The notes beneath the pieces were generated by a model. That model saw only the letters and a program-made list of their open reading frames with translations, had not been told where the DNA came from and did not search any database. Shown here in pieces: positions 21,802-64,000 of a stretch of 64,000 nt of DNA; within the stretch, counting starts at the first letter, position 1; each line of letters opens with the position of its first letter. Position numbers and translations under genes: made by a program. Source of the DNA: an uncultured Planctomycetaceae bacterium. Its GTDB lineage: Bacteria > Planctomycetota > Phycisphaerae > SM23-33. Location of the stretch: positions 63,940-127,939 of the forward strand of contig CAZOVB010000001.1 in NCBI GenBank assembly GCA_964583095.1. The letters run 5' to 3'.

Positions 21802-21861
21802 TTTGCATTGTCTGCGGTCGTGAAGTAAGCTCACTTCCTCACTCGGGAACCGGACACCTTC

Positions 21862-22899: not shown

Positions 22900-22944
22900 G
22901 CTTGAGACTCCCGCCGCCGCGATGGCAGGCAGGAGGCTCGCGCA

Positions 22945-22975
22945 TAGAATAATATCTAAGGGTTTGTGGTAGAAT
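22945..22975 (+). promoter_or_regulatory. AT-rich island with two TAGAAT (-10-like) hexamers upstream of the glycosyltransferase gene
   Basis: cgcaTAGAATaatatctaagggtttgtggTAGAATacat read directly. Unusual AT-rich patch in otherwise GC-rich DNA. Confidence 0.3.
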
Positions 22976-23011
22976 ACATAGGGGAACAGCCGCAATATGA
23001 CGAGGTCAAAG

Positions 23012-24403: not shown

Positions 24404-24588
24404 CGTTGCCCCGGCCTGAGGCTTGCCTTTGCATCAGGCAGTAGTGAAAGCTCCCGCAATTGGCCGATACAATGACGTAAGCCCATAGCTGCCCCCCCGG
24501 ACCCAGGACCTGCGCTGCCGGATGCGGCCAGGACGGGCCCGCCGGCCACGACATACAGGATTTTCTCAGGAAGGACTCATCGCGAAAA

Positions 24589-25782: not shown

Positions 25783-25821
25783 CCGGCACGTAGGACAATC
25801 CAGACCCCAACGGAGGCGATC

Positions 25822-33505: not shown

Positions 33506-36043
33506 TCAGTCGGCCAGGTTGGGCACGTCGATGCTCCGAACCACCGAAAGCATGGCCAGCTCCGGCAGCCTCTCCACCTCAACGCTTCCCAGGACCATCC
33601 TGGCCGCAGGGGCCTCCAGAAGCTTCTCGAAGCCCAGGTCCTTGATTTTGGCCAGGCTCTCCGGGCTCAGGTCGGTCAGGTAGATCGCTATTTCAACCTT
33701 TCCGTCGGTTACGATCACCTTGCCCTGAGCGTAATTGCCCTTTTCGTCGAGCTTGGCCTGGAGATCCTGCAGGGCCTCGGCGACCTTGGCTTTGACAGCC
33801 CGTTCTCGCATCTGCTTTTTGGACAAGGGCTCCTGGGTGGCCTCATCGTCTCGGTCCGCATCTTCGGGGATATTCTCGACCGGGGCCACCTTCTCCGCCG
33901 CCTTTGTTGCCCCTCTCGCAGGCGCCTGGCCTTTCCGACCGGTGGCCTGTTTCAGACGATTTGCCGCGGGTCCGGTCGGCGCGGGTTTAGCACCGCCCGC
34001 GGCCATCCCTTGCATTATCATGCGTCGCCCTCTGACATTGACAGGAGCCGCGTTGCCATCGCCGAAGATGCCTTCGTAGCTGACCCCATCGGGCATCTCC
34101 ACCGGGACATGCACTTTCCGCGGTTTGCCGCCGAGGGTGACTGTCTTTTCTTCCACGGCCACGAAGCTGGTAAAGCGCGTCATCAGGCCATACTCCTGGC
34201 CGAGGTCGATAATCTGGGCCTTGATCTTCTCATCCGGGTTGCCCTGCTGCATGCCCCGCAGGTCCGAGGCCATCAGGTGATCTACCTTCGCCCGCGCCCA
34301 CTGTTTGGGCAAAACGGGGTTGCCCGGAGCCTTGGCCGGCAGGGTAACTTGAATTTCGCGGCTGAAGTCGCCCCCTCCACTGGTCCCGCGAAGGATGAGG
34401 GTAGCGGTGACGTCCTTTTCCGGCCGGCGGAACCGGCCCTTGATGACCACCGGTTTGGCGCTGAAAAGGTCGGGAATTACGCGCGGATACAGTTCATCGG
34501 CAACGATGTACGATTCGAGTTTGCCCCAGTCGATCGAGATGTCGGTCAGGACGGGGGCGTCGATCTTGTTGTAGAAGCTGTCGGCCTTGTCCTGTGCGCC
34601 CTTTTCCTGGAGCACATACTCTGCCTCTCCGCGGCCTGCCTGGGCGATTCCGTCGATGCAGTAGCGGTTGACGCTCTTGCCGGTCCCGAAGACGAACACG
34701 CGCGTGCCGGCGGCGTTTTCGCGGACAATGTCGATCATCTCCATGTCGTTGCCCACGAAGCCATCGGTGAAGAAGGCCACGATTCGCACCATGCCCTCGG
34801 GGGCCTCTCCGGTCAGGCAGGCGTTCATGGCCCCGGCCATTCGCGTCCCGCCCTGGCCCTTCAGGGAGCGGATGAACCGGCCGGCCTTGTTGCGATTATT
34901 CTCATCGTTTTCCACAAAGCCTTCAAAGACCGTGCCGGCCGAGTTGGCGAACTGCATGACGTTGAACTTGTCGCCGGGTCGCAGGTTTTCGATCGCCTTA
35001 AGGCAGATCTGCTGCGAGAGCGAAAGCGGAAAGCCCCTCTGCGATCCGGAAGTATCTACCACGAACATGATCTCGCGAGCGACGACCTGTCGGGCTGCAG
35101 GCCTGGCCGGCGGCTGAAGCAGCAGCGTGAAGTAGCCATCGTCCTGGTCGGTGTGGGTGAGCATCGCATCGGCGATATCGTCCGAGGCGGTCTCGAAACG
35201 CAGCACGAAGTCTTTATTGGGGATCTCGTCCTTGTTGGCCAGGGAGACCTTGGCCCGGGTGTGGGCGGGGTTCTGCCAGGTCAGATCAATCTCGTGGAGG
35301 GGTGCGTCGATCTGCTGGATCTTGACCCCCGGGTTGAGCATGACGGTGACCGAGATGTCATGGCCGGCCCGGATGCCCTTGGGCGTGATCGGGGGACTGA
35401 TGCGGTCGGCATCGGAGTCGTCGCTCTGCTCGGCTGGGACGCGACGGGGCTTGACCAGAGGCTGGGGCTCGCCCGGTGAAGGTGTGGGCCCCGGCTGATC
35501 GCCCGGGATATATCGAGGTCCGACGACCATGGGGAATACGAATTCATACCGGCCCGCATTGTACGTGAGCGTCTCGGTGTAGCCGATCGTGATGGTGATC
35601 TTCTTGCCCGGTTCGATATTGGCCACCGCCTGGGTGAAGATATTGGGCCTCTCCTGAGCGAGCAGGCTCGCGACGTGACCCTTTTCCTTTGCTTCTTCGT
35701 AGATCTGTCGAGCTTCGTCCCGGGGCTTGATGCGCCCGAAAATCACGCGATCGCCGACCTCCATGGTCATCTCGCTTACCGCAGCGTCGGACCCGAGGGG
35801 GAAGGTGTAGATGGCCTCGATCTTCTCGTCGTACGGGTTCTCGAAGACCTGCTCCACCTGCACATAGGCGGTGGTGCCGGAAAGGAAGACCTGCACATCG
35901 GTGTGTTGCAGGGGGCACCGGCCCAGCGGCTTGGCCTCGGGGCCGATTGCGGTCAGGCAGCCCTGGGTGGGAGCTTTCGCCCCGACCGAGGCGGTTGCCG
36001 GCAGCAGGGCAAGGATGGAAATCAGGAAGGTTACGCGCCTCAT
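33506..36043 (-). CDS. Secreted VIT-domain + von Willebrand factor A domain protein
   Basis: Signal peptide. N-terminal VIT-like domain. vWA MIDAS (FVVDTSGSQRG..GGTRMAGA..FFTDG). Long Ala/Lys-rich C-terminal extension. 845 aa. Confidence 0.8.
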   Translation of the reverse strand: MRRVTFLISILALLPATASVGAKAPTQGCLTAIGPEAKPLGRCPLQHTDVQVFLSGTTAYVQVEQVFENPYDEKIEAIYTFPLGSDAAVSEMTMEVGDRVIFGRIKPRDEARQIYEEAKEKGHVASLLAQERPNIFTQAVANIEPGKKITITIGYTETLTYNAGRYEFVFPMVVGPRYIPGDQPGPTPSPGEPQPLVKPRRVPAEQSDDSDADRISPPITPKGIRAGHDISVTVMLNPGVKIQQIDAPLHEIDLTWQNPAHTRAKVSLANKDEIPNKDFVLRFETASDDIADAMLTHTDQDDGYFTLLLQPPARPAARQVVAREIMFVVDTSGSQRGFPLSLSQQICLKAIENLRPGDKFNVMQFANSAGTVFEGFVENDENNRNKAGRFIRSLKGQGGTRMAGAMNACLTGEAPEGMVRIVAFFTDGFVGNDMEMIDIVRENAAGTRVFVFGTGKSVNRYCIDGIAQAGRGEAEYVLQEKGAQDKADSFYNKIDAPVLTDISIDWGKLESYIVADELYPRVIPDLFSAKPVVIKGRFRRPEKDVTATLILRGTSGGGDFSREIQVTLPAKAPGNPVLPKQWARAKVDHLMASDLRGMQQGNPDEKIKAQIIDLGQEYGLMTRFTSFVAVEEKTVTLGGKPRKVHVPVEMPDGVSYEGIFGDGNAAPVNVRGRRMIMQGMAAGGAKPAPTGPAANRLKQATGRKGQAPARGATKAAEKVAPVENIPEDADRDDEATQEPLSKKQMRERAVKAKVAEALQDLQAKLDEKGNYAQGKVIVTDGKVEIAIYLTDLSPESLAKIKDLGFEKLLEAPAARMVLGSVEVERLPELAMLSVVRSIDVPNLAD

Positions 36044-36532
36044 GGCAAGGCTCCTTTTCTTCTGTGTTGTGAGATTTCGACTCCACGGGACATGTATCGA
36101 GCAAGGTCTCTTTTGCGCAGGTTTTTCATATTTCCCCCGGAAGTCCGCGAAGATGGCTGCAAAAATCGCATCGCTTAATACTATCTTAACCTTTTCCTTG
36201 TGTTATCTTCGCGTCGTCATTGCATTTTCCTGACAAATGAGTCCTGGCAGTTCCACCGGCAGGCCGCTGGAATCGGCCTGCCTCAGGTGCTGCCGGATCG
36301 TTCCTGATAATTGTGCCTTTCAGGTTCGGTCCCACTGGACTTCCAGGAGTTCCTGTGCGCTGCTGGAAGGAATCAGGGACGCCGTTTAACCGTCCAGCAA
36401 GAAGATCACCTGCAGAGGTGCCTCCAGGCTCCGCAGCAAAGATGATCTTGCTGGGAAACCAACAGGGCTGACCAAACGCCGGTCGGCTCGACAAAGCCTG
36501 CAGCCCAGGCTGCACTCGGAAGGAGCAATTGC

Positions 36533-37936
36533 ATGGCAAGAGCAAAGAAATGGATTCTTGCGCTGGGTTTGGCGGTTCTGACCTGCCCGGCAGCGGCTCA
36601 GGAGCCGGATGTCCAGGACCTCCTGAGAAAGTACGAAGCACTTCAGAAAAAGGTCGAGAATCAGGACGAGCGGATTGCCGAGTTGGAAGAACGCAAGACC
36701 GCCGAGGCAAAGACCAACCTTCTCCAAGCCCTGAAGGACCTCGAAGGGGACAACAGCATGAAGGTCTTCTGGAAGGAAGGCCTGCGGCTGGAATCCTATA
36801 ACGGCAACTTCAACCTGCGGATCGGTGGACGCATCATGTTCGACATGGGCTGGTCGACCGACGATGATTCGGCCAGCCGTTCGAACATCGGCAACCAGGC
36901 CGACTGGTTCGAATTCCGCCGGGCCCGGCTCTACACCCAGGGCGACATCTACGGCAACATCAAGTACAAGCTGCAACTGGATTTCGCCGACGGAAGTCTC
37001 TCGACCAAGGATGCCTACATCGCCATCGTCACCAACGGTCACAGGTATCTTGAGGATGTGGTCGATGAGGTCAAGTTCGGGCACTTCAAGGAGCCCTTCA
37101 GCCTGAACGAACTGACCAGTTCCAAGTACATCACCTTCATCGAACGGGCCACCCCCGTCTCCCTGCTGGCGCCAAGCCGAAACCCCGGTGCCGCCGTGAG
37201 CAAATACTGGTCCGACCACCAGGTTGGGTACGCGGCGGGACTCTTCAAAAGCGCCGACGACGGCGAAGCTGCCTATGACGACGGCTACGCGTTTACCGGT
37301 CGCGTTACCTGGGCGCCCTGGCTGGAAGAAGCCGGCCAGAAGCTCCTGCACCTGGGCGGTTCGTACAGCTATCGCCACGAGGCCTCGGGTTCCACACGAT
37401 ACCGCACCCGCGGGCCCCAGCACATCGGCAACCGTCCACTGGATACCGGAACGCTCAACGAGGTCGATTCGACCAACCTGATGGGTGCAGAAGCCGCCTT
37501 CACCTATGGGCCCTTCAGCATGCAGAGCGAATACCTGGCAGCAAGTCTGGCCTCGATTGACAACCAGGACGACCTGTGCATCAACGGCTTCTATGTCCAG
37601 GCTGGGTACTTCATCACCGGTGAACACCGCGTGTACAAGAAGGGTACCTTCTCCCGGGTCAAACCCAAGCAGAACTACAGCCCCGAAGGAGGCTGGGGCG
37701 CCTGGGAAGTGGCCGCCCGTTACAGCTACACGGACATAGACGACGGATCGGCCGGTCAGCTCAGTCGTCCCGGCGACGTCACAGCCGTTACCCTCGGTCT
37801 CAACTGGTACCTGAACCCCAACACGCGCGTGATGTTCAACTACATCCGCTCCTGCTGGGATATCGGGGACAGCTCGGCCACGGGCTTCACCGAGGACATC
37901 GATACCTTCATCGTCCGCTTCCAGGTCGACTTCTGA
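36533..37936 (+). CDS. Phosphate-selective porin O/P family outer-membrane protein
   Basis: Signal peptide, N-terminal coiled coil, beta-barrel region ending in a terminal F (RFQVDF). LNWYLNPNTRVMFNY motif typical of OprO/OprP. Confidence 0.75.
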   Translation: MARAKKWILALGLAVLTCPAAAQEPDVQDLLRKYEALQKKVENQDERIAELEERKTAEAKTNLLQALKDLEGDNSMKVFWKEGLRLESYNGNFNLRIGGRIMFDMGWSTDDDSASRSNIGNQADWFEFRRARLYTQGDIYGNIKYKLQLDFADGSLSTKDAYIAIVTNGHRYLEDVVDEVKFGHFKEPFSLNELTSSKYITFIERATPVSLLAPSRNPGAAVSKYWSDHQVGYAAGLFKSADDGEAAYDDGYAFTGRVTWAPWLEEAGQKLLHLGGSYSYRHEASGSTRYRTRGPQHIGNRPLDTGTLNEVDSTNLMGAEAAFTYGPFSMQSEYLAASLASIDNQDDLCINGFYVQAGYFITGEHRVYKKGTFSRVKPKQNYSPEGGWGAWEVAARYSYTDIDDGSAGQLSRPGDVTAVTLGLNWYLNPNTRVMFNYIRSCWDIGDSSATGFTEDIDTFIVRFQVDF

Positions 37937-37968
37937 TCCCAGGCGGATCTGCACCCTTTGCACTCCGG

Positions 37969-41723: not shown

Positions 41724-43208
41724 CTATTGCTCGATCCAGAATTCCCAGCTCAGGTCTTCCACGACAACCGCAAGGTCGCCCTGCTGCGTCGCCAATTGCA
41801 TCCCGCGGAAATCCTCGCCCGCCTGCTGCGGCGTGTATCGCATGCCGGTGAACCGGGCAGAGGGAAGATGGGTGGTTATATCGAACCGGTACGGCCGACC
41901 GCTGCGATTGCTCAATACGATCACGTGCTTGCCGTCGGGTTTTCGATAGCAGAAGACTCGCAGGTCCTCGTCGGGACAACTCTCCCGGACCTCCAGGGCT
42001 CTCGAGTCCCAGGGCATGTGGCGCAGGAACCCCGCCAGGGCGTGCCAGTTGCAGGGATTCCAGGTCCAGCAGCCCGGCTCGAGGCCGGCCAGTTCCCCGG
42101 GCAGCTCTGCTGCGTCGGGTTTGGCTTTGGCCGGCATCCAATAGCCCAGGCTGTATCCGCTCGCCTCTTCGTTGCCGACGGGCTTGAGCGCATGAATCCA
42201 GAACCAGGTGGGCGACTGGGCCAGCTGGAACCAGTTCATGATGTTCTGAACGGTATTGAGACAGCGGGCCGGCGTGGTGGGGCCTTTGAGATACTCGTAT
42301 TCATTCTGGAACATCTGTCGATCCAGACCGATTCGCTTGCGTCCCTCGGCCACCGTCTGCTCCACGGTGTTGGAATTGAAGCCGATGGTGTGCACGGTAA
42401 TCGCGTCGACAAGCGATCTGCACTCGGGCCAGGTCTTGAGCAGCTCTTCCAGGTAGGTCAGCTCGTCGTGGGCGCTGTCGGCAATCAGAAGAATCTCGGG
42501 ATCCAGTTGACGGATCTTCGGCGCAACGGCCGCGTACGTCCTGGCCCACTGCCCCGGGCTCTGGCGACAGGAGGAGTAGGCGGTGTTGGCCTGGGGTTCG
42601 TTGGCCAGGCCCCACATGGAGACACGGATTCCTGCCTGCTTGAGGGTCTTGACATCGGCCACGCAGGCCTGGGCGAAGTCTTCAAGAAAGCGATCGACAT
42701 CGCCGCAGTAATCGGGGTCGTTCTCGAAATCCGACTCGAAGCACCGAAGCACGTTCTGGGGGTCCTTCGGCTGATCCCATGGATTGCCGCAGAGGCGGCG
42801 GTTGGCCTTCCAGTACGGCGGGTGGGACCAGTATTCCAGGGACACCCCCTCTACACCGGCTCTGTCGAGCATGCGCGACAATTCTTCCAGTTGCTCCGGC
42901 CAGCGAGGGGCAAGCGTCTTGCCCTCTTCGTCCAGGCCTCGCCAGTAGAGACCGCCGGCCAGGCGGCAATAGCGGAAGCCTTTGAGCATTTCATCGCAGA
43001 AGCGTTCGAACTCCTCCTCTTTCAGATCATGCGGCACGGAGGTCTTTTCCTCAGGCAGGCCGGAGTTGCCCGAGGCAATCGAATCGGACTGGATCTCAAA
43101 ACCCAGTCCCCAGATCCGTTGCCGGGGTCTGTGGGGCAAGAGTTCGTACTGCCCTGCCGCAGGGGGCGGGGTCTGTCTGGCGGGTCTTTCGGGTGGGTAA
43201 ACTTTCAC
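41724..43208 (-). CDS. Clan GH-A glycoside hydrolase, GH30-like
   Basis: WGLANEPQ acid/base motif. IWGLGFEI N-terminal motif. 494 aa. 14 nt upstream of the FAD oxidoreductase gene on the same strand. Confidence 0.55.
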   Translation of the reverse strand: MKVYPPERPARQTPPPAAGQYELLPHRPRQRIWGLGFEIQSDSIASGNSGLPEEKTSVPHDLKEEEFERFCDEMLKGFRYCRLAGGLYWRGLDEEGKTLAPRWPEQLEELSRMLDRAGVEGVSLEYWSHPPYWKANRRLCGNPWDQPKDPQNVLRCFESDFENDPDYCGDVDRFLEDFAQACVADVKTLKQAGIRVSMWGLANEPQANTAYSSCRQSPGQWARTYAAVAPKIRQLDPEILLIADSAHDELTYLEELLKTWPECRSLVDAITVHTIGFNSNTVEQTVAEGRKRIGLDRQMFQNEYEYLKGPTTPARCLNTVQNIMNWFQLAQSPTWFWIHALKPVGNEEASGYSLGYWMPAKAKPDAAELPGELAGLEPGCWTWNPCNWHALAGFLRHMPWDSRALEVRESCPDEDLRVFCYRKPDGKHVIVLSNRSGRPYRFDITTHLPSARFTGMRYTPQQAGEDFRGMQLATQQGDLAVVVEDLSWEFWIEQ

Positions 43209-44476: not shown

Positions 44477-44935
44477 TCAGCGTGTTTCGCAGACCAGGTC
44501 GATCTCGACCGGGGAGTTCTTGGGAAGGGATGCCACACTCAGGGCACAGCGAGCGTGCATGCCCTGGTCCCCGAAGAGCCGGCCCAGAAGTTCGCTGGCG
44601 CCGTTGGCTACTTCGGCCTGGTCGTGAAAGCCCTCCTGCGAGGCCACGAACACCTTCATGCGGACCATCCGGTGCAGATTCTCGATTCCCCCGGCCACCT
44701 CGGCCGCAGCGGCCAGGGCGTTTAGCACCGCCTGCCTCGCCGCCTCTCGGGCTTCATCCAGGCTGACCTGCCCGGGCACCTTGCCCTCGGCGATCAACTG
44801 GCCATCTCTGACCGGTAAATGCCCGGCCGTGAAGATCAGATGCCCGCTGCGAATCGCAGGCACGTAAGCTCCTACCGGACTGGGGACCGGCGGAAGCCGC
44901 AAGCCCATCTGTTCGAGTTTCTGCGCTATGCTCAT
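44477..44935 (-). CDS. ridA: RidA/YjgF family (reactive intermediate deaminase) protein
   Basis: 152 aa. PVGAYVPAIRSGHLIFTAG..ARCALSVASLP motifs. Confidence 0.85.
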   Translation of the reverse strand: MSIAQKLEQMGLRLPPVPSPVGAYVPAIRSGHLIFTAGHLPVRDGQLIAEGKVPGQVSLDEAREAARQAVLNALAAAAEVAGGIENLHRMVRMKVFVASQEGFHDQAEVANGASELLGRLFGDQGMHARCALSVASLPKNSPVEIDLVCETR

Positions 44936-45015: not shown

Positions 45016-47346
45016 TCAGAGCGTCAAATTCAGATACAGCTTGGGCAGCACGCGAGGCAACTCGTGCAGGTCGTGGAGGATCACGAATCGCCGTCGCGGG
45101 AACATGATCTCCATGTCGGCTTCGGAGTTCTCGCGCGTGCTGATCGCGAAGGTATGCACATCCATGCGGGCGTTTTCCTCGCAGGCCATTCGCACGTCGT
45201 GCTGGGCATACCGGGTGTTGGGGTCATAGCCCTGGTCCATCGGCTTGCCGTCGGTGACCAGCAGGATGAGTTTCTGGCGATTGGGTTCACGACTCAGCAG
45301 GTACCCGGAGTGGCGAAGGGCCGGCCCGATCCGCGTGGAGTTTCGAGGCCAGGCCGCGAAGATCTTCTCCCGCGTCTCCTTCGACCAGTCGTCCTGGAAC
45401 CGTTTGAAGACAAAATACTCGCACTGCTCGGGCCCGTTGGAGGAAAACCCGTTGACCGAGAAGCGGTCGTCCAGGGCGCTGAGCCCTTCGCCCAACGTCA
45501 CCGCTGCACGTTTCTCCAGGTCCAGTACCTTCTCCCGTCCCTGCATTTCTTCGCCGGTGGAACCGGAAAGATCCATCAGGATCAGCACGGCCAGATCCCG
45601 CCGCTGGACGAGGGGCTTTTCGTAGAAACGGACCTTCGGGGCCGGTTCGTGCCGCCTTTGCACGCGATGCTCGACCAGCAGGTCCAGGTTGATCTGCTCT
45701 CCGTCGGGCAGATACTTCTCCTTCCGGACGATCTCGGGTTTGAGTCTTTGGAACACGGCCCGGACCTTCTCGGCCTCCTCTCTCCAGTTCCCGGGGCCGC
45801 TGTCGGAGGTTGCGGGTTGAATCGGCAGTTCGTGAACTTTGCACCAGTCGGGGCGATACTCGTTCTGCTGGAAGTCCCACTCGTCGTAGATATAGGCTGC
45901 GACGATCTGCCCCTCGGCCTGCTCATCTTCCTGCTCTCCCTGCCCGTCGGCGACCTGGGTATCGGCCTGCTGGGCGTCGGCGTCCTCTTCCTGTGAGCCG
46001 GTCTGGGCCTGATCTGCCTGCTGTTTCATATCCGCCACGAGGGCTTCGCTGGGCGGGACCGACAGGTGAATCGGAAACTGGAGGTCCGGAACAAACGAGA
46101 GAGGTCGAATCGTCGAGACCTCGATCTGCGGATAGTGTTTCTTGACAGCGACGGTCCAGGGCTCATCGAGTTTCGAGGCCGTGTCGAAGCAGTTCACACT
46201 TCGGCTCGCTACGTCCAGGATCCGGTCTACCGCCTGGTTCTCCGTACCGGTGCAGGCATCGCGCAGGAGCTTTTCGGCATCCGACCGAGGTGGCCCCAGG
46301 CGAAACTCGGTCCTCAGGGCGAAATCCACCAGCGACCGTGCACCGGGCCAGCGATGGCGAATCGCCTCGAGGATTCGGACGATCTCTACGATGAGGAAGA
46401 GATTCAGCCGCAGCGGCGTCTCGCCGGCCAGATCCGACGCGCGGGAATAGTCGGCATGGCCGTGCACACGCGGAAAGCCGTTGTCAATGACCATCGCCGC
46501 AGCCACCAGGCCACACAGCAGGTACCACTTACGGTTCGCGGTGGCATTGTCAAAGGCACGCAGTCGGGCCGGCAGGTACAACTGGTCGGTCGTCTGGATC
46601 ACCTGGGCGCCGCGCTCGATGATATCGTCGCTGTCGAGTCCTCCCAGGTCGTGGACGTGGATGGCGGTCTCCGCCAGGGCCTGTACCAGGGCGGTAATCG
46701 CCTCATCGACATCACAGAGCCTGCATTCCTGCGTGAGGGTCAGGATATACGTCTCGCAACTGCTCAGCTCGCATCGCAGGAAAGCCAGACCCGATTCCCG
46801 CTTTCGCCCGAACATCTCCAGCCCCGTCTGGATGTATCTCGCCAGTTGCGTCTCGTTCAGGCGGGAAACCAGGTACCCGTAGCCCTTGAGCAGGGCCATG
46901 GCCGCTTCGTCATCACTCCGGCGGAGCCTGCGAAGCCAGGTCATGGCGTTTCGCATCTGGCGCGGTGTCCGGCCCATGCGCCCCTCGGCAAAGGCCCGGA
47001 AGAAGCTGATCCCGAAGCTCAGTCGATTCTCGGCCAGGCTTGCGCCCAGTTCCACCAGATCGGCGAACATGCCGGGGGTCTCGAGGATCCAGCGGTTGTC
47101 CGGGCGCAGGGAGCCCAGAAACTCGTGTAGGACGTGGTCGAAACAGCTCTGGTCGGCCTGGTTGAGCAGTTCGAAAAAACGCCGGGTTACTTCCTGGTTG
47201 GCCTGGCCCAGGTGACCGGAATCGATCAGCTGCCCGATCGTGCGGGCAAAGACGTCCCGGTATCCCCAGGTGACGCTCTTGAGGTCGAATCCATGGGCCC
47301 GGCCCAACCGGCCGGCATCGGTACTACTGGGCGACAGCCGGCTCAT
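45016..47346 (-). CDS. CbbO/NorD-like protein with C-terminal von Willebrand factor A domain
   Basis: 776 aa. C-terminal VWA (LILMDLSGSTG..LLVTDGKPMD). Long alpha-helical N-terminal region. Acidic low-complexity insert (QQADQAQTGSQEEDADAQQADTQVADGQGEQEDEQAEGQ). Overlaps the AAA+ gene by 23 nt. Confidence 0.65.
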   Translation of the reverse strand: MSRLSPSSTDAGRLGRAHGFDLKSVTWGYRDVFARTIGQLIDSGHLGQANQEVTRRFFELLNQADQSCFDHVLHEFLGSLRPDNRWILETPGMFADLVELGASLAENRLSFGISFFRAFAEGRMGRTPRQMRNAMTWLRRLRRSDDEAAMALLKGYGYLVSRLNETQLARYIQTGLEMFGRKRESGLAFLRCELSSCETYILTLTQECRLCDVDEAITALVQALAETAIHVHDLGGLDSDDIIERGAQVIQTTDQLYLPARLRAFDNATANRKWYLLCGLVAAAMVIDNGFPRVHGHADYSRASDLAGETPLRLNLFLIVEIVRILEAIRHRWPGARSLVDFALRTEFRLGPPRSDAEKLLRDACTGTENQAVDRILDVASRSVNCFDTASKLDEPWTVAVKKHYPQIEVSTIRPLSFVPDLQFPIHLSVPPSEALVADMKQQADQAQTGSQEEDADAQQADTQVADGQGEQEDEQAEGQIVAAYIYDEWDFQQNEYRPDWCKVHELPIQPATSDSGPGNWREEAEKVRAVFQRLKPEIVRKEKYLPDGEQINLDLLVEHRVQRRHEPAPKVRFYEKPLVQRRDLAVLILMDLSGSTGEEMQGREKVLDLEKRAAVTLGEGLSALDDRFSVNGFSSNGPEQCEYFVFKRFQDDWSKETREKIFAAWPRNSTRIGPALRHSGYLLSREPNRQKLILLVTDGKPMDQGYDPNTRYAQHDVRMACEENARMDVHTFAISTRENSEADMEIMFPRRRFVILHDLHELPRVLPKLYLNLTL

Positions 47347-48253
47347 GTTCGCCTTCCATCAAGTCCCCGAAGTAGAGCTGCACAACGTTTTCGATTGCTT
47401 CGAGGACCTCCTGGTCTTCGGTGAGGGTCTGGCTGATGGCATGGCGCGAAGCCTGGACCGCGGTCATCCCGCCCTGCATCAGTCGACCGACGTAGACCAG
47501 CAGACGACTGGAGACGCCCTCGTCCAGGCCGAAGCCCTTCAAAGCCCTGATTTTTGCGCCCATCTCGGCCAGCTTGCGACTGGGCTCTGTTTCCAGGCCG
47601 GACTCTGTAGCGATGATTCTCGTCTCGACTTCCACATCTGGATGGTCGAAGTTCATGCTCGCGAATCGTTGGCGGGTCGATTGTTTCAGATCCTTCACGA
47701 TGCTCTGGTAGCCGGGGTTGTAGCTCAGGACCATCATGAAGTCCTTGTGGGCGTGGACCACTTCACCGGTTTTGTCGATGTAGAGAATCCGCCGATCGTC
47801 GGTCAGCGAGTGAATGATTACGGTCGTGTCCTTACGGGCCTCGACGATCTCATCCAGGTAGCAGATCCCTCCATGTCGCACCGCAAGGGCCAGCGGACCG
47901 TCCTGCCAGACGGTCTGGTCGTCTTTGAGCAGGAACCTCCCGACCAGGTCTGCTGCGGTAAGATCCTCGTGGCAACTGACGGTGATCAGGGGCAGTTCCA
48001 ACTTCCAGGCCATGTGCTCGATGAACCGCGTCTTGCCACAGCCTGTGGGGCCTTTGATGATCAACGGGATGTGCGCTTTGAAGGCGGCCTGAAAGAGCGT
48101 CTCTTCGTCGGCCTGAGGCACGTAATTGGGTTTTTCGTTGATTCGGAACTGCTGGATCTCGGCGGTAGAATTCACGACGACTCGGGCCTTTCCCAACGGA
48201 GGTAATCGGGATGGTATGGTATAGGTCGCTTCTCCAATGAAGCGCAAAAGCAT
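47324..48253 (-). CDS. CbbQ/NirQ/NorQ/GvpN-type AAA+ ATPase (MoxR class)
   Basis: PLIIKGPTGCGKTRFIEHMAWKLELPLITVSCHEDLTAADLVGRFLL closely matches the CbbQ/NorQ N-terminus and Walker A. CYLDEIVEARKD Walker B. 309 aa. Confidence 0.8.
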   Translation of the reverse strand: MLLRFIGEATYTIPSRLPPLGKARVVVNSTAEIQQFRINEKPNYVPQADEETLFQAAFKAHIPLIIKGPTGCGKTRFIEHMAWKLELPLITVSCHEDLTAADLVGRFLLKDDQTVWQDGPLALAVRHGGICYLDEIVEARKDTTVIIHSLTDDRRILYIDKTGEVVHAHKDFMMVLSYNPGYQSIVKDLKQSTRQRFASMNFDHPDVEVETRIIATESGLETEPSRKLAEMGAKIRALKGFGLDEGVSSRLLVYVGRLMQGGMTAVQASRHAISQTLTEDQEVLEAIENVVQLYFGDLMEGEHEPAVAQ

Positions 48254-48333
48254 TATAGATCATACCAGATTACCCGTGACAAGGCGATGGCGGTTTAGAA
48301 GAAAGCTTTTCCTCCTGAAGCCGAGAAGATGCA

Positions 48334-49299
48334 ATGACTCCAAGAGAAAGATTCATCACCGCCCTGGAGTGCCGGAAGCCGGATTATGTCCCCCACTTCG
48401 AACTGGTTTTCTACCTCACCATGGAAGCCCTGGGGAAGGTCCATCCTCAACACCGGGCTTTGAACCAGTGGCAGCAGATGTCAAAACACGAACTGGATCT
48501 GCAATTCCAGGACATGGGACGAACGTACGTCGACTCCGCCCGCAAATACGAGCATGACGCGATACATATCGTGCCCCCCTGGATGCCCGGCCTGGACCCG
48601 GTCGAGAAATTCCTGCGGATCTTCGAGGCCATTCGCGATCTTTCGGGGTACGAATTCTTCCTGGGCTGCCACGCCGATGCCACCTACGCCCTGCCCAGCG
48701 GGGAGAAGATGATGGCCTTCGTGGAACGACTGGCCGATGCGCCCGAGGAAATGAAGGACCTGGCCCAGCAGCGCGTCGACCGCGCCCTGGAAGATGCCCG
48801 ACGATACCAGCAGGCCGGGCTGAACGACGGATTCTTCCTCTGCGCCGATTATTGTTTCAACAACGGGCCGTTCCTCTCCCCGGCGATGTTCGCCGAGTTC
48901 GTCACCCCCTACCTGAAGCAGCTCATTGCCGGCTATCGCGAGATGGGCTTCTTCGTCATCAAGCATACCGACGGCAATATCATGCCGATTCTCGATCAGC
49001 TCGCCCAGTGCAGGCCCCACGGCCTGCACAGCCTCGATCCGCAGGGGGGCGTGGATATCGCCGAGGTCAAGAAGCGAATCGGCCGGAAGATCTGCCTGCT
49101 GGGCAATGTCAACTGCGGAATGCTCCAGACCGGCAGTGATGAAGAGGTGATCGAGTCAGCCCGCTACGCCCTGGAACATGGCAAGAGCGATGGTGGATAT
49201 GTCTTCTGCACCAGCAACTGCATTTACACCGGGATGGCCTTGGAGAGATACGAACTGATCCTCGACATCTGGCGGAAACATCGCAATTACGACAGCTGA
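48334..49299 (+). CDS. Uroporphyrinogen decarboxylase (URO-D) family protein, paralog 1
   Basis: URO-D/MtaA-like TIM-barrel pattern (RPDYVPHFEL..., FFLCADYCFNNGPFLSP, HTDGNIMPILD, LLGNVNC). 321 aa. Confidence 0.7.
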   Translation: MTPRERFITALECRKPDYVPHFELVFYLTMEALGKVHPQHRALNQWQQMSKHELDLQFQDMGRTYVDSARKYEHDAIHIVPPWMPGLDPVEKFLRIFEAIRDLSGYEFFLGCHADATYALPSGEKMMAFVERLADAPEEMKDLAQQRVDRALEDARRYQQAGLNDGFFLCADYCFNNGPFLSPAMFAEFVTPYLKQLIAGYREMGFFVIKHTDGNIMPILDQLAQCRPHGLHSLDPQGGVDIAEVKKRIGRKICLLGNVNCGMLQTGSDEEVIESARYALEHGKSDGGYVFCTSNCIYTGMALERYELILDIWRKHRNYDS

Positions 49300-49383
49300 C
49301 ACCCACAGGCGCCCATAAGGTATTTGACTCCGTAGCCGCGGCATGGAATAATCCCGTGGACGACCCCAAGCCTGGAGAAGACA

Positions 49384-50457
49384 ATGCCCAAAGAAATGAC
49401 TTCCCGAGAGCGGATCGGGCGGGTGTTCGACCACAAGACCCCAGACCGCGTGCCCTTCTGGGATTCCCCCTGGGGTCCCACCGTCGCCCGCTGGCGGCGT
49501 GAAGGGCTCGGCCCCGAAGAAGACTGGCGGGACCACTTCGGTCTGGACCGCATTCTCAGCATTCGCCCGGACAACACCCCCCGCTACCCCCACAAGGTGG
49601 TGGAGGAAACCGAGCAATACGTCATTGCCACCGATGCCTGGGGCACCACGTTGAAAAACTGGAAACACCAGGCCTCCTGTCCGGAACACCTGGGCAATAC
49701 CATCGTGGACCCGGACGCATGGGCAAAGGCGAAAGATCGCATGACCGTCTCCCGCGATCGGGTCGACTGGGAAAAGCTCCAAGCCCAGTACGCCCAGTCA
49801 ACGCCCCGCGGGGACTGGCGCATGGGCGTGCTCTGGTTCGGGTTCGATATCACCCATTCCCGCGTCGTGGGTACCGAGCGCACCCTGATGGCCATGGTGG
49901 AACAGCCCGAGTGGATCATGGACATTTTCGACACGCAGTTGAACCTTTCCATCGCCCTGCTGGAAATGGTCCTCGATGCCGGCTATGAGCTGGACTGTGT
50001 CGACTGGCCCGACGACATGGGCTACAAGTACAACCAGTTCTTCTCACTGGGGATGTACCGAGAGCTTCTCAAGCCTTTCCACAAGAAGGCGGCTGACTGG
50101 GCCAGGAGCAAAGGCCTTCGCGTCCGCATGCATTCCTGCGGAGACATTCGCCCGTTCATCGGGGACCTGGTGGAAATCGGCATCGAATGCCTCAATCCAT
50201 TGGAAGTCAAGGCCGGCGTCGACCCGCTGGAAGTCAAGAGCAGCTACGGGAAGGATCTCGTCCTCCACGGGGGAATCAATGCCCTGCTCATGCGGGATTA
50301 CCACAGCGTGGAAGAGGAAATGCGAAGGTTGATCCCGAAGATGAAGGAAGGCAGCGGATACATCTTCGCCACCGATCACTCGATTCCCTCCAACTGCAGC
50401 TTCGAGGAATTCGGGCGCATCGTCGAGCTTTACAAGCAGTTGGGCAGCTACGACTAG
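49384..50457 (+). CDS. Uroporphyrinogen decarboxylase (URO-D) family protein, paralog 2
   Basis: Same architecture (TPDRVPFWD, HSCGDIRPFIGDLVEIGIECLNPLE, LHGGINA). 357 aa. Confidence 0.7.
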   Translation: MPKEMTSRERIGRVFDHKTPDRVPFWDSPWGPTVARWRREGLGPEEDWRDHFGLDRILSIRPDNTPRYPHKVVEETEQYVIATDAWGTTLKNWKHQASCPEHLGNTIVDPDAWAKAKDRMTVSRDRVDWEKLQAQYAQSTPRGDWRMGVLWFGFDITHSRVVGTERTLMAMVEQPEWIMDIFDTQLNLSIALLEMVLDAGYELDCVDWPDDMGYKYNQFFSLGMYRELLKPFHKKAADWARSKGLRVRMHSCGDIRPFIGDLVEIGIECLNPLEVKAGVDPLEVKSSYGKDLVLHGGINALLMRDYHSVEEEMRRLIPKMKEGSGYIFATDHSIPSNCSFEEFGRIVELYKQLGSYD

Positions 50458-60444: not shown

Positions 60445-61272
60445 ATGTATACCGACTTCTTCAAACTCCAGGACGAGCCCTTCCGCCTGACCCCCGACCC
60501 CCGGTACCTGTATATGACGGTGCAGCACCAGGAGGCCCTGAACCACCTGACATACGGTATATACCAGAAAAAGGGCTTCACCTGCCTGACCGGGGAGGTC
60601 GGAACCGGAAAGACCACCCTCCTGCGTCACCTGCTGGACGAACTGGAACGCGACGGCAAGATCCACACCGCCTTGATCTTCAACCCCGCCCTGACCGAAG
60701 TACAGATGCTTCGCAGCATTGTCGAGGAGTTCGGCATCAGCATCCGCAGGCAGGACCGCCTGAGCCTTCTGCGAGCCATCAACCGATTCCTGCTGGACTG
60801 CAAGAAGAACGGCGAGACGGCCGTGCTGCTCATCGACGAAGCCCAGGACATCCCACCCAAGACCCTGGAGATGTGCAGGCTGTTGAGCAATCTGGAAACC
60901 AAGACAGAGAAACTGCTCCAGATCGTCCTGGTGGGTCAGCCCGAACTGCGCGACACGCTGGAAAAACCCGAGTTTCGACAGCTCTCCCAGCGCATCGCGG
61001 TCCGCTATCACCTGGCCCAGATGAATGAGGGCGACACCGAAGAATACATTCGCCATCGCCTCGCCGTGGCCGGCCAGACCGACGAAGGCAAGGAAAAAGG
61101 CATCCGATTCGATCGGGGCGCCTACCGCGAGATCTATCGATTTTCGGCCGGGACCCCCCGACTGGTCAATGTGCTGGGCGACAAAGTCCTCCTGGCCGGA
61201 TACATCTACCAGACCGGACGGATCAACCGCAAGATCGTACGCAAGGCCGCCGACGAACTCAAAGGGATGTAA
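60445..61272 (+). CDS. ExeA/GspA-type AAA ATPase (secretin-assembly / T2SS protein A family)
   Basis: LTGEVGTGKTTLLRHL Walker A. LLIDEAQD Walker B. 275 aa. Confidence 0.8.
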   Translation: MYTDFFKLQDEPFRLTPDPRYLYMTVQHQEALNHLTYGIYQKKGFTCLTGEVGTGKTTLLRHLLDELERDGKIHTALIFNPALTEVQMLRSIVEEFGISIRRQDRLSLLRAINRFLLDCKKNGETAVLLIDEAQDIPPKTLEMCRLLSNLETKTEKLLQIVLVGQPELRDTLEKPEFRQLSQRIAVRYHLAQMNEGDTEEYIRHRLAVAGQTDEGKEKGIRFDRGAYREIYRFSAGTPRLVNVLGDKVLLAGYIYQTGRINRKIVRKAADELKGM

Positions 61273-61273
61273 T

Positions 61274-62404
61274 ATGAGTCTGATCCACGAAGCCCTCAAA
61301 CGCGCCGAAGCCGAACGAACACAGGATTCGTACAGCCCGCCGCCCATCGACAAGCCCGAGCCGAAGGTTGCTGTTCCCCGCGCCCGGCAGCGATCCAAAC
61401 GTTTCTCCGGCCGATGGGTTGGAATCCTCGCCGCCGGCTGCATTGTTGCTCTCTGTGCCGGGGCGGCCACCTGGGCGGTGATGGCGTTTGCGGGCAGCGC
61501 CCCTGGCCCCCAGCCGGCCTGGGGTCTGGACACCCGTATTCCCGCCCGGGAAGTCTCACCGGATCTGCCCGGACGCCCGGAATCGGTCGTACCCGATTTG
61601 CAGCGGTCCACCCCGAGAGAGACGGTTGATCAGGGCCCCACCTGTTCCGACACACCACAGGAGTCCCAAGGCCAACCCGAAGTGAACACTTACCCCCAAC
61701 CCCGCAATGCCACCGGGTCCTATGAACCTGAGCCCAATCCTCTGATCACCCTTGAGCAGTGGGAGCAGATGACTTCGGCCTCCAATCGCGCCGTGGCCGG
61801 CGTGCTGGAAGATTTCGCAGCCATCGGTCCGGGCTTTGGAGCCTTGTGCCAGGACCTGGGCGCTTTCGTCCGGACGCAGAAGCATGCCCAGTATGAACTG
61901 GCCCTGGAAGCCCAGCGACGCCGGGAGATCGAGCGTAAGAAGCGCGAAGAAGCCGGATTGGCTGCTGAAAAAGCCCGCGCTGATCAGCTCGCCCAGCAGA
62001 AGGCTCAGGCCCAGAAGCAGGAACAGCTTCGAAAGCAGGCTCAGGCCAAGCGAGAGCAGGAGCTTCGCGCCCAGGCCGAGGCACGCAGGCAGGAAGAACT
62101 CCGCAAGCAAGAACTCGCTCGCCGGGAAGAAGAAGCCCGTCGCCGGCAGGAGCAGGAATCCTCCGCTGTCGTGACGGCCGGTCCGGGTACTCCCAACGGC
62201 AGCGATGCCCAGGCCTCTTCAGACGGCCAGGAGCCCGAATTCATTCTCAATGCGATTCTGCTTTCCTATGAGCGAACCTACGCGGTGATCAACAACAAGG
62301 CCTACCGGCTCAACGAGACGGTCAACGGTGCGAAGGTGATTCACATCGAGCGAACAATGGCCAAGCTGCTCTACAAGGGCAAGGTGATTGTTCTTCGGCT
62401 CTGA
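61274..62404 (+). CDS. GspB/ExeB-like membrane protein (TM + charged coiled coil + GspB-type C-terminal domain)
   Basis: Starts 2 nt after the exeA-like stop. N-terminal SLIHEALKRAE amphipathic segment. TM (WVGILAAGCIVALCAGAATWAVMAF). KR/EQ-rich coiled coil. C-terminal ILNAILLSYERTYAVINNKAYRLNETVNGAKVIHIERTMAKLLYKGKVIVLRL resembles the GspB C-domain. Confidence 0.55.
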   Translation: MSLIHEALKRAEAERTQDSYSPPPIDKPEPKVAVPRARQRSKRFSGRWVGILAAGCIVALCAGAATWAVMAFAGSAPGPQPAWGLDTRIPAREVSPDLPGRPESVVPDLQRSTPRETVDQGPTCSDTPQESQGQPEVNTYPQPRNATGSYEPEPNPLITLEQWEQMTSASNRAVAGVLEDFAAIGPGFGALCQDLGAFVRTQKHAQYELALEAQRRREIERKKREEAGLAAEKARADQLAQQKAQAQKQEQLRKQAQAKREQELRAQAEARRQEELRKQELARREEEARRRQEQESSAVVTAGPGTPNGSDAQASSDGQEPEFILNAILLSYERTYAVINNKAYRLNETVNGAKVIHIERTMAKLLYKGKVIVLRL

Positions 62405-62417
62405 GCAGGAGGGAAAC

Positions 62418-63995
62418 CTACTGCTCGCCCTCCTCCGGGCCGGGAATACGGGGGCGGGGGAACATTTTCTCGAAGTCCAGATTCTGTTTGCGGCACTGCC
62501 GCCGGAGCGGGTCGGCTACTGCGTCGTAGACCATTACTGCCAGTGGGAATCCGCTGCCGTCGCCACTGGCAGGGCGAACCATCAGGAAACTCGAAGCTTC
62601 GGCCCAGAGGCGACTCCTGGCTTCCAGCGAAAGGTCGTATCGCAATGCCCTGGGATAGGTCATCATCTGATACAGGACATCCGCGGCGATGTAGTCCAAT
62701 GTCCGCACCTGGGTACGTTCAGGCATGAGAGACTGGAAGGCGTTGTAGATCGGATCGATGTAGGCAGCCTTGACCCGGTTGTACTCTGCCCGGCCCTGGC
62801 CACTTGCAGCCAAGGCGGCAAAACCTCGGGCAAAGGCGACCCCCAGGGCGGTCCGGGCCTGGGCGGTGGTCAGGAAGGAATCGTTCTCCAGCCAGAGCCT
62901 CACATGCTCCAGAGCCGTATCCACCTTCCACCAGGCATCGTCGTCATACTTGTAGTTATCCTTGATCCACTGGAAGTATTCATTTGCCTCTTCCTGTCGA
63001 TCCGCGATAACAAGCATCAGCATCACGTCTCGAAGATAGCCTAGATGGGCAGCAGAGAATTGCGTCTCGCTCATCGGGACTTCCTTGCCCTGCGTTTCCA
63101 GAACGACGCGCTGGAATTCCTTGACGAGTTTCACGAACTGCCGGTGTGTGGCAGGTATGTAACGGGGATCATAGGCTCGATCCACCTGTGGATTGTCCGG
63201 GTCGTCGGGATTTACCATGTACCTCAAACGTCCGAAGGCCGTCATCTGCTTCATGCAGCTCAGCTCGATGCGGTTGGTGTTCAGGGGCGTCGCCTGGGTG
63301 ATGTCCGGTACGTCGGATTTCTCCAGTCCGATCGCCGCCCAGTACATCCCATGGGGCCAGGGCAGACGCCAGTCCAGCGGTACATTGTGTTTTTCCATTA
63401 ACCCCAGCATGAACCGCGGATCCATCTTGTACTTGTTCCAAAGGATCTGGGAACGTACCCAGTCAAGCAGTCGCTTTCGCTGCAGAGCATACGCGTCGCT
63501 GTTGATCCATTCGGCAATCGAAGCCTCGGCTTCGTTCCGAGGGGCCCTGCGGTTCCGCGGGCCCCAGGCGCGGAGCACCTCTTCATCCAAACTGAAACGA
63601 TGCCAGGCTTCCAGCAGGGACGCATCTACCTCAAGCCCCGTCGCACGAAGCTTTGATACGTACTCCGCGGCTTTGGGGTCGGCATCCAGGATCTTCTCGA
63701 CAAGGACATCTTCCTGGAACCGGCCCTCCTTGCGAGGCCGGGATGGGTCACGGTCCAGGGGCGCTTCGGCGATCCCGCGGAACCAGTCAATAACGTCCTG
63801 GGTGCTTCCTACCGGGGGCGAACCGAAGACCTTGTGCATCTCCGCCGCCCATCGTCGCTTCAGAGCACGGTGCATCTCGTCGGTGTCCCCGCCGATCTTG
63901 CTCATGAAGATCCAACTGAGTTCCTTGTACAGGTAGATCGAGTCGGGGTTGATCGGGATCGCTTCGTCCCGCAACAGCGCCATGCCATTGCTCAC
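62418..63995 (-). CDS. Conserved hypothetical protein (W/Y-rich, alpha-helical). The 5' end may run off the window.
   Basis: 525 aa ORF with consistent coding bias. No motif I recognise. The frame stays open upstream to the window edge (GTG at 63995, ATG at 63983). Confidence 0.5.
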   Translation of the reverse strand: MSNGMALLRDEAIPINPDSIYLYKELSWIFMSKIGGDTDEMHRALKRRWAAEMHKVFGSPPVGSTQDVIDWFRGIAEAPLDRDPSRPRKEGRFQEDVLVEKILDADPKAAEYVSKLRATGLEVDASLLEAWHRFSLDEEVLRAWGPRNRRAPRNEAEASIAEWINSDAYALQRKRLLDWVRSQILWNKYKMDPRFMLGLMEKHNVPLDWRLPWPHGMYWAAIGLEKSDVPDITQATPLNTNRIELSCMKQMTAFGRLRYMVNPDDPDNPQVDRAYDPRYIPATHRQFVKLVKEFQRVVLETQGKEVPMSETQFSAAHLGYLRDVMLMLVIADRQEEANEYFQWIKDNYKYDDDAWWKVDTALEHVRLWLENDSFLTTAQARTALGVAFARGFAALAASGQGRAEYNRVKAAYIDPIYNAFQSLMPERTQVRTLDYIAADVLYQMMTYPRALRYDLSLEARSRLWAEASSFLMVRPASGDGSGFPLAVMVYDAVADPLRRQCRKQNLDFEKMFPRPRIPGPEEGEQ

Positions 63996-64000
63996 CCAAT

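Follow-up and report, generated by a model that had tools for sequence, protein, structure and literature searches.

The 64-kb stretch of uncultured Planctomycetaceae DNA analyzed here (contig CAZOVB010000001.1, 64,000 nucleotides; the window in the following) is predicted to encode an intact ATPase and adaptor pair of the NorQD/CbbQO type, consisting of a MoxR AAA+ ATPase and a partner protein with a VWA domain that carries a MIDAS, an adhesion site which depends on metal ions. We found that the pair belongs to a clade of its own, and that this clade is significantly and specifically associated with gene clusters of the ORP type. The ORP ("orange protein") complex, an assembly of metalloproteins specific to anaerobes, has been known for a long time, and its function is unclear. 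The explanation that we favor, at a probability of roughly 0.55, is a NorQD-like chaperone of a distinct clade that has its client in the ORP-type metallocluster machinery, the pair being detached from the ORP cluster in this genome. That part of the explanation which does not involve ORP, namely a NorQD-like chaperone of a distinct clade with a client other than Rubisco, cNOR or a URO-D-family protein, is very likely correct. To our knowledge, the established client classes of CbbQ/NorQ-type chaperones are two only, Rubisco and cNOR.

A Separate Clade of CbbQ/NorQ-Like Pairs

For the phylogeny we collected 175 loci and computed a distance (neighbor-joining) tree of 194 ATPases with 100 bootstraps; the contig scans of genomes and metagenomes that served as the control set gave mostly proteobacterial CbbQ/NorQ. 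The ATPase of the window falls into a clade of 43 sequences, which is split from the others with a bootstrap support of 99/100. The CbbQ structures 5c3c and 6l1q are found in another clade, in which 49/64 members have RbcL within 10 kb, the distance used here to judge the proximity of RbcL, NorB and ORP genes. The solved NorQs (PdNorQ and JtNorQ) group with L075 only, the sole locus linked to NorB. Neither RbcL nor NorB was found within 10 kb in any locus of the window's clade, and seeds of both proteins (phmmer, E < 1e-10) gave no match in the entire window. Judged by phylogeny and context, the pair is hence neither a Rubisco-linked CbbQO, since it is placed outside that clade and has no cbbLS, cbbM or carboxysome genes next to it, nor a NorQD, since the NorQ grouping and the norCBQD context are both absent. 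Its client is therefore not among the characterized ones. This is what the initial annotation, made from the letters of the window, had expected when it described a pair without Rubisco or NO reductase genes nearby and raised the idea of a new client; a position inside the NorQ clade, against which it wanted the ATPase checked, was not borne out.

The partner proteins tell a similar story. Whenever the ATPase is at least 60% identical to that of the window, the partner aligns over its whole length (34–56% identity, ~770 aa), while at the other loci it usually aligns over the C-terminal ~300 aa only. Comparison with hhalign matched the N-terminal domain (NTD) of the clade to that of CbbO (probability 95.7%, E 9e-9, 243 columns) and to that of a third group of partners (probability 99.4%, E 8e-22), and the CbbO and third-group domains to each other at E 2e-57. 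By these profiles the clade NTD is homologous to both and much more diverged. Because both NTD and linker engage the client in the NorQD model (PMC13036017), this divergence is what a different client predicts.

The clade is found mainly in anaerobic Planctomycetota and other members of the Planctomycetota–Verrucomicrobiota–Chlamydiota (PVC) group, in Chloroflexota and in allied lineages. The ATPase is 73–80% identical across metagenome-assembled genomes (MAGs) labelled as Planctomycetota, Phycisphaerae, Kiritimatiellia, Sumerlaeia, Anaerolineae, Victivallales and Spirochaetales. We also considered a bona fide NorQD or CbbQO that would serve, in trans, a cNOR or Rubisco with its gene at another place in the genome, as the 55–60% identity of the ATPase to CbbQ and NorQ and its naming in public databases would suggest. 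Such an arrangement is very unlikely in view of the 99/100 bootstrap that sets the clade apart from CbbQ and NorQ, the absence of RbcL and NorB from the vicinity of all clade loci compared with the 49/64 RbcL-linked members of the CbbQ clade, the strongly diverged partner NTD, and the hosts, for the most part PVC and Chloroflexota MAGs with a fermentative or anaerobic lifestyle.

The names themselves, "nitric oxide reductase NorQ protein" and "NorD activation protein", are given to clade members by JGI and NCBI (P0001-P0120, P0148, P0150, P0154-P0157, P0161, P0177). They are probably a systematic misannotation, and such mislabelling can falsely signal a denitrification potential in PVC and Chloroflexota MAGs.

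A third clade, in which Gammaproteobacteria and Acidobacteriota predominate, comprises 79 CbbQ/NorQ-like ATPases (a subset of L017-L169, e.g. L026, L045, L073, L100 and L155), with VWA partners of ~620 to ~1100 aa. RbcL lies within 10 kb in none of these loci and NorB in one, so that orphan CbbQ/NorQ-like pairs are common. The orphan status that had been assigned to the pair of the window thus holds, without being special. The neighbors in the third clade (permease, GST, esterase, MnmA, S49 peptidase, histidine kinase) are of mixed kinds and therefore suggest no client.

Association with ORP-Type Gene Clusters

Analysis of the flanks with precomputed Pfam tables and local annotation gave a recurring gene set beside the pair: Nitro_FeMo-Co (PF02579), DUF5320, DUF134, CbiA/MinD ATPases that carry two ferredoxin motifs, the fusion Mrp/NBP35::Nitro_FeMo-Co and an activator of the PAS-sigma54 type. 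Frequent companions of this set are a 4HBT thioesterase, FmdE, ARMT1, FMN_red, NifU_N and Lactamase_B; radical SAM is among the variable extras. Nitro_FeMo-Co/MrpORP genes flank 12/27 clade sequences versus 0/147 non-clade loci (Fisher p = 1.6e-11). After de-duplication, and before locus L174 was added, the numbers are 9/18 versus 0/147 (p = 2.4e-10), or 9/18 versus 0/80 (p = 3e-8) with controls of at least 12 kb. With L174 included and duplicates removed, 10/19 independent clade loci with usable flanks are ORP-positive. In L006, L007-9 and L171, the genes of 4HBT, ATPase and partner overlap stop-to-start and follow the Nitro_FeMo-Co/MrpORP genes on the same strand, and therefore look co-transcribed. 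In L174, the ORP-type cluster is divergent from the pair.

The known counterpart of this gene set is the Desulfovibrio ORP system, orp3-4-5 / orpR / orp7-8-9 (PMC6345978, PMC8359166, PMC3897727), whose parts are mirrored by the clade neighbors. The PAS(C-x8-C-x3-C)-sigma54 proteins are like OrpR, the MinD/CbiA-2x[4Fe-4S] proteins like Orp3/Orp4, the single-domain Nitro_FeMo-Co proteins like Orp8, and the Mrp/NBP35::Di-Nase proteins with CMHFGHCE...CDH like Orp9/MrpORP. Orp3 and Orp4 are reported to possess two [4Fe-4S] ferredoxin motifs each, Orp8 is the orange protein that bears a Mo-Cu-S cluster, Orp9/MrpORP is an Mrp/NBP35 protein fused to a Di-Nase domain with the motifs CxHFGHCE and CDH, and OrpR is a PAS-sigma54 activator that senses redox changes via a [4Fe-4S] cluster on C52, C61 and C65 (PMC6345978, PMC8359166). 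The fusion proteins of L006 and L171 contain CMHFGHCE...CDH, GKGGVGKS and CxxC, which are the MrpORP signatures (PMC6345978), and the C-x8-C-x3-C of the PAS domains in the activators of L002, L006, L171 and L173 is the OrpR cysteine triad (PMC8359166). Unlike the Desulfovibrio system, the ORP loci of the clade add 4HBT, FmdE, ARMT1, FMN_red and cationic-tailed Nitro_FeMo-Co proteins that resemble IssA.

From this gene association we infer that the client of the clade is among the ORP-type metal-sulfur proteins. The machinery would comprise Nitro_FeMo-Co proteins as cluster carriers, MrpORP as Fe-S donor and the MinD-ferredoxin ATPases, and would be controlled by a redox-sensing sigma54 activator resembling OrpR. 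Which factors mature the ORP metalloproteins is stated to be unknown (PMC6345978), and our full-text literature search found no paper linking CbbQ/NorQ/MoxR to the orange protein. We propose, tentatively, that the clade may supply what has been missing from the anaerobe-specific ORP system, a factor for its maturation or remodelling; if this is true, ORP proteins would be a third client class of the CbbQ/NorQ-type chaperones. The NTD and the MIDAS of the clade partners would in this case open Nitro_FeMo-Co proteins (the orange protein, MrpORP's Di-Nase domain, IssA-like proteins) or the Orp3/4 ATPases, and the opening would serve to load or unload Fe-S or Mo/Cu-S clusters.

Several points weigh against a client in the ORP machinery. 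About half of the clade loci, including the window, L172, L011 and L015, lack ORP-type genes at distances of up to 10 kb, and among the more divergent members with 60–66% identity (L012, L013, L015, L092, L094, L095) L012 is the only one with an ORP link. The Desulfovibrio orp locus is described without MoxR/VWA genes (PMC8359166, PMC6345978), and the pair is therefore not a universal ORP component. The link is one of guilt by association, and co-location could mirror shared anaerobic regulation instead of clientship. Finally, the neighborhood sample is modest, with several loci from related MAGs.

These points leave room for a dedicated chaperone whose client is something else encoded elsewhere, for example a hydrogenase, a carbon monoxide dehydrogenase, a molybdo- or tungsto-enzyme or a radical-SAM enzyme, the ORP adjacency then being due to anoxic co-regulation or a shared metal supply. 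The ORP-free half of the clade would fit such a client, as would the variable extras of the ORP-linked loci (FmdE, ARMT1, FMN_red, radical SAM, Lactamase_B, 4HBT) and the frequency of CbbQ/NorQ-like pairs without an evident client. We regard this as possible but doubtful, because no other family recurs beside the pair as steadily as Nitro_FeMo-Co, DUF5320, MinD-Fer4 and MrpORP, and because overlapping reading frames put the pair in ORP-type operons in several phyla. The clade loci without the ORP set have miscellaneous neighbors, among which Pfam revealed nothing recurrent; L172, like the window, lies among carbohydrate genes.

An ORP-linked chaperone thus remains our preferred explanation, and for the window it implies a displaced pair. 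Searches with tblastn and phmmer using 25–54 seed proteins found no ORP-type genes over the 15.7 kb upstream and the 45 kb downstream of the pair, so that adjacency to an ORP cluster, by which we propose to define an ORP-associated MoxR/VWA module, is absent here and present in the 10/19 loci mentioned above. Our basis for the detachment is this 64 kb without any ORP-type gene, together with a comparison to L170, in which the promoter-like box and the leader are conserved and the flanks beyond them diverge. In this genome the two genes would accordingly form an operon that stands by itself, is expressed from a sigma70-like promoter of its own and has been displaced from the ORP cluster. For the window itself this means a real pair with local neighbors that are uninformative on function. 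At the level of the family, a highly conserved clade that is repeatedly operonic with orp-type genes is a concrete, testable candidate for both the chaperone and the ORP fields.

Two kinds of genes in the ORP-type clusters were also seen repeatedly. Nitro_FeMo-Co paralogs whose C-terminal tail is cationic and rich in Cys/Arg, e.g. MPGCCGRRRQFRARRRRGR, occur in L006 2691-3080(-), L007 7565-7987(-), L171 5752-6186(-), L173 3223-3624(+) and L004 13354-13818(+). They share clusters with orange-protein-like and MrpORP-like genes and resemble IssA, whose cationic C-terminal tail binds thioferrate (PMC6345978). A 4HBT (hotdog) thioesterase recurs beside the pair in L006 (9555-10004), L007 (9564-10004), L171 (9564-10004), L173 (8643-9134) and L174 (4933-5424(-)); its stop overlaps the ATPase start (ATGA) in L006, L007-9 and L171, and it was found beside the pair in only 1/147 non-clade loci.

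The ATPase and the Partner Protein of the Window

The pair is encoded by two overlapping minus-strand open reading frames (ORFs), 47324-48253 (309 aa as an open frame) and 45016-47346 (776 aa). The genes share 23 nt, which suggests translational coupling. Both ORFs, their overlap and the CbbQ/NorQ-type N-terminal motif that had been recognized in the ATPase (IKGPTGCGKTRFIEHMA...HEDLTAADLVGR) were confirmed. The features of the two genes are as follows.

47324..48175 (-): CbbQ/NorQ-type MoxR AAA+ ATPase gene, 283 aa from a GTG start
48029-48052 (-): ATPase, Walker A, GPTGCGKT
47963-47983 (-): ATPase, TVSCHED; this motif and GPTGCGKT hold the redox cysteines equivalent to PdNorQ C68 and C46
47912-47941 (-): ATPase, H2-insert GRFLLKDDQT (motif GRxLL/IxxxxT, as defined in PMC13036017)
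47837-47866 (-): ATPase, Walker B, ICYLDEIVEA
47711-47728 (-): ATPase, sensor-1, LSYNPG
45016..47346 (-): CbbO/NorD-type partner gene, 776 aa, overlapping the ATPase gene
46057..47319 (-): partner, all-helical N-terminal domain (aa ~10-430), AlphaFold2 block-mean pLDDT mostly 84-97
45904..46056 (-): partner, acidic Q-rich linker (aa 431-481), acidic core aa 452-480 (45907-45993)
45607..45903 (-): partner, pre-VWA "finger" region (aa 482-580), long beta-hairpin at 485-508
45019..45606 (-): partner, VWA domain (aa 581-776), D592-x-S594-x-S596 at 45559-45573, plus T671 and D699
45019-45048 (-): partner, hydrophobic C-terminus LPKLYLNLTL at the end of the VWA domain

The ATPase matches the Pfam families AAA_5 (E 3.5e-32, 111.7 bits, gathering cut-off 22) and CbbQ_C (E 5.2e-24, 84.7 bits, cut-off 20.6), and the partner matches VWA (E 1.3e-5, 25.9 bits, cut-off 23.8, residues 587-748). 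All three families proposed for the hidden Markov model check hence score above their gathering cut-offs. Over its full length, the ATPase aligns with the solved CbbQ (5c3c, 6l1q; E ~1e-97) and NorQ (9qhd, 9qh4; E ~1e-90). Its domains and motifs, together with the adjacent VWA/MIDAS partner, place it in the CbbQ/NorQ/GvpN (CGN) subfamily of the MoxR ATPases. The equivalog models TIGR02640 for GvpN (71.9 bits, cut-off 266.8) and TIGR01650 for CobS (30 bits, cut-off 558.55) are not reached, and Pfam Mg_chelatase gives 20.5 bits (cut-off 20.3), none of the matched stretches being above threshold singly.

In the partner, an alignment of 35 sequences shows no variation at the MIDAS residues D592, S594, S596, T671 and D699, and DxSxS is present in 72/72 clade partners. 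The C-terminal ~300 aa match NorD (phmmer E 2e-29, aa 482-774), and aa 482-580 align with the NorD segment that contains the pore-inserting finger, located at 403-448 in PdNorD (PMC13036017). An AlphaFold2 model built with 35 homologs (mean pLDDT 85) has as its best PDB structure matches in Foldseek the NorD VWA-plus-finger chains 9qh6_G and 9qhd_G (target-normalised TM-score 0.79–0.81, ~295 columns), followed by the MIDAS domains of Rea1/Midasin. The fold search matched the VWA-plus-finger part only, and the comparison of the NTDs is that by hhalign. The N-terminal domain is presumed, by analogy, to be the domain for client binding and ATPase docking. Its invariant or near-invariant residues include W27-G28-Y29, L237-D238-S239-D240, H295-G296 and P425.

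The acidic Q/E/D-rich insert of the partner had been called unusual, and this view has to be given up. Comparison of 72 clade partners, 41 Rubisco-linked CbbO and 55 others revealed a stretch with 30–40% D/E about 140–165 residues ahead of the MIDAS in all three groups, CbbO included. It corresponds to the disordered linker between NTD and VWA described in NorD (PMC9976466, PMC13036017). In the window's partner, aa 440-481 contain 12 D/E, 12 Q and 1 K/R per 42 residues, and the model gives pLDDT < 50 over aa 456-481.

The NTD, which is specific for the clade, has two conserved motifs, LDSDD (aa 237-241, 46624-46638) and (R)VHGH (aa 293-297, 46456-46470), and C502 of the finger hairpin is invariant; all three are candidates for the binding of a metal or of the client. 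Small ORFs of 68-69 aa without a Pfam family lie between the ATPase and partner genes in L002 (10887-11096) and just after the partner gene in L004 (13172-13378); the window has no equivalent of them.

Comparison with Known Chaperones

The two-gene architecture is that of NorQ/NorD, the chaperone for Fe_B insertion into cNOR (PDB 9qh4-9qhg; PMC9976466, PMC13036017). The gene order is the same, with a ~270-aa MoxR ATPase followed by the partner. With NorQ the ATPase shares the H2-insert motif GRxLL/IxxxxT, which in NorQ touches the finger of the partner, and both redox cysteines, which form an inhibitory disulfide in PdNorQ (C46 and C68; PMC13036017). With NorD the partner shares the helical NTD, the disordered linker, the finger, the MIDAS VWA domain and the hydrophobic C-terminus, an architectural resemblance that does not establish membership, and in the predicted model the VWA-plus-finger fold matches at a target-normalised TM-score of ~0.8. 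Unlike NorD (638-646 aa), however, the partner has 776 aa and a much larger NTD that is only remotely related; the ATPase is not a member of the NorQ clade, and norCB is nearby neither in the window nor in any clade locus. The client of the pair is not cNOR.

CbbQ/CbbO, the Rubisco activase (PDB 5c3c, 6l1q; PMC4660213, PMC8718961), is the system that the ATPase matches best in sequence (E 1e-97, ~55-60% identity). The CbbO partners are of similar size, with a median of 756 aa versus 776-781 aa in the clade, the acidic linker is at the same position, and the two genes are likewise adjacent or overlapping. The differences are the placement of the ATPase outside the Rubisco-linked clade, the lack of a Rubisco gene nearby and the NTD, which matches CbbO at E 9e-9 only.

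Given the shared architecture and fold, the pair probably uses the same "finger-in-pore" twisting as NorQD. By analogy, a hexameric MoxR AAA+ ATPase would act together with one adaptor protein, the VWA finger of which would be inserted in the ATPase pore, while the adaptor's MIDAS site and NTD would grip the client. ATP-driven twisting and stretching of the acidic linker would then open the client, so that a metal cofactor could be inserted or released.

CoxD/CoxE, CobS/CobT, BchI/BchD and RavA/ViaA likewise combine an AAA+ ring with a VWA/MIDAS adaptor for the maturation of metalloenzymes, and an acidic linker is often present. They are only distantly related to the pair; the CobS match in the PDB search has E 3.7e-7.

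MoxR-VWA modules also occur in anti-phage and conflict systems, and PADLOC and NCBIfam relate the ATPase weakly to IetA/IteA and mad8. A role in defence is nevertheless hardly conceivable. The matches do not extend beyond the P-loop (E 3e-7 to 1e-3) and remain far below the NCBIfam cut-off, PADLOC gives nothing for the VWA partner, 75–80% identity across phyla is unlike fast-evolving defence genes, and no effector or sensor genes are near the pair. With matches at the P-loop level only and the partner unmatched by the IetA/IteA and MADS profiles, the pair is not a recognized defence system and we rejected this interpretation.

Neighboring Genes and the Leader of the Pair

The genes next to the pair and the region ahead of it are as follows.

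44477-44935 (-): RidA-family gene, 80 bp downstream of the partner gene, same strand
48176..48282 (-): leader and promoter-like region, TTGTCA (48282-48277), 19-nt spacer, TATAAT (48257-48252)
48334-49299 (+): URO-D-family paralog 1, divergent, upstream of the pair
49384-50457 (+): URO-D-family paralog 2, divergent, in tandem with paralog 1

Other neighbors are an XylR/AraC regulator, a heparinase II/III-like protein, a class II aldolase and an FGGY kinase. The RidA gene, the two divergent URO-D paralogs and the sugar genes had all been named correctly by the initial annotation, which regarded the URO-D paralogs as candidate clients. This assignment fails. The physical adjacency of the paralogs (48334-50457), which share a ~160-bp divergent intergenic region with the pair, and the metalloenzyme-related nature of URO-D/MtaA-like enzymes, with MtaA/CmuA matches below the NCBIfam cut-offs, speak in its favor. 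URO-D homologs flank 0/28 other clade loci, however (26 analyzed by phmmer at E < 1e-4 on the ORFs, L174 and L175 by the precomputed Pfam tables), so the co-occurrence that was to be expected of a client was not found and the neighborhood is not conserved. In L170, the closest relative found (95% aa identity), synteny with the window ends ~100 nt upstream of the start codon. The breakpoint lies at ~48273-48283 in the window and at ~1240 in L170, immediately upstream of the promoter-like box, and three unrelated, co-directional small ORFs (132, 131 and 80 aa), none of which has a Pfam family, replace the URO-D genes. As the pair in addition has its own conserved promoter-like box, we consider URO-D clients highly improbable. 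A RidA homolog adjoins the pair in none of the other clade loci examined. The URO-D, RidA and sugar genes are incidental neighbors that tell nothing about the function of the pair; while the local idea of a novel client fails, the mis-annotated clade tied to ORP is a real, testable lead. In both URO-D paralogs, only the C-terminal ~190 aa match Pfam URO-D, and the NCBIfam models that match are MtaA/CmuA methyltransferases, all well below their cut-offs.

The comparison with L170 also bears on the start of the ATPase. The ORF up to 48253 reported for the ATPase exists, but its ATG at 48253 falls inside the conserved TATAAT box in the DNA alignment with L170, which makes the GTG at 48175 the most likely start; the ATPase homologs are ~283 aa long. 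Positions 48176-48273 are conserved between the window and L170. A sigma70 consensus scan did not flag the TTGTCA-19-TATAAT box because its spacer exceeds the 18 nt allowed by the scan. No terminator was found between the VWA and RidA genes. A riboswitch or other structured leader was considered and rejected, as the leader has no Rfam match at E <= 1 and its fold, with a z-score of 0.02, is not unusual.

A second, unrelated VWA protein (VIT + VWA_3, 845 aa) is encoded at 33506-36043 (-), ~9 kb from the pair and without an adjacent MoxR ATPase. At the thresholds used, no Pfam family was matched by six large ORFs of 420-849 aa: 41724-43208 (-), which has no NCBIfam match either, 20662-23211 (-), 36386-37963 (-), 61025-62404 (+), 62418-63998 (-) and 24577-25839 (-). 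Large predicted ORFs of this kind are typical of PVC-type genomes. The remaining window is ordinary-looking chromosome with genes for UvrA, DnaJ, PdxJ, a DapA-like protein and a glycogen debranching enzyme.

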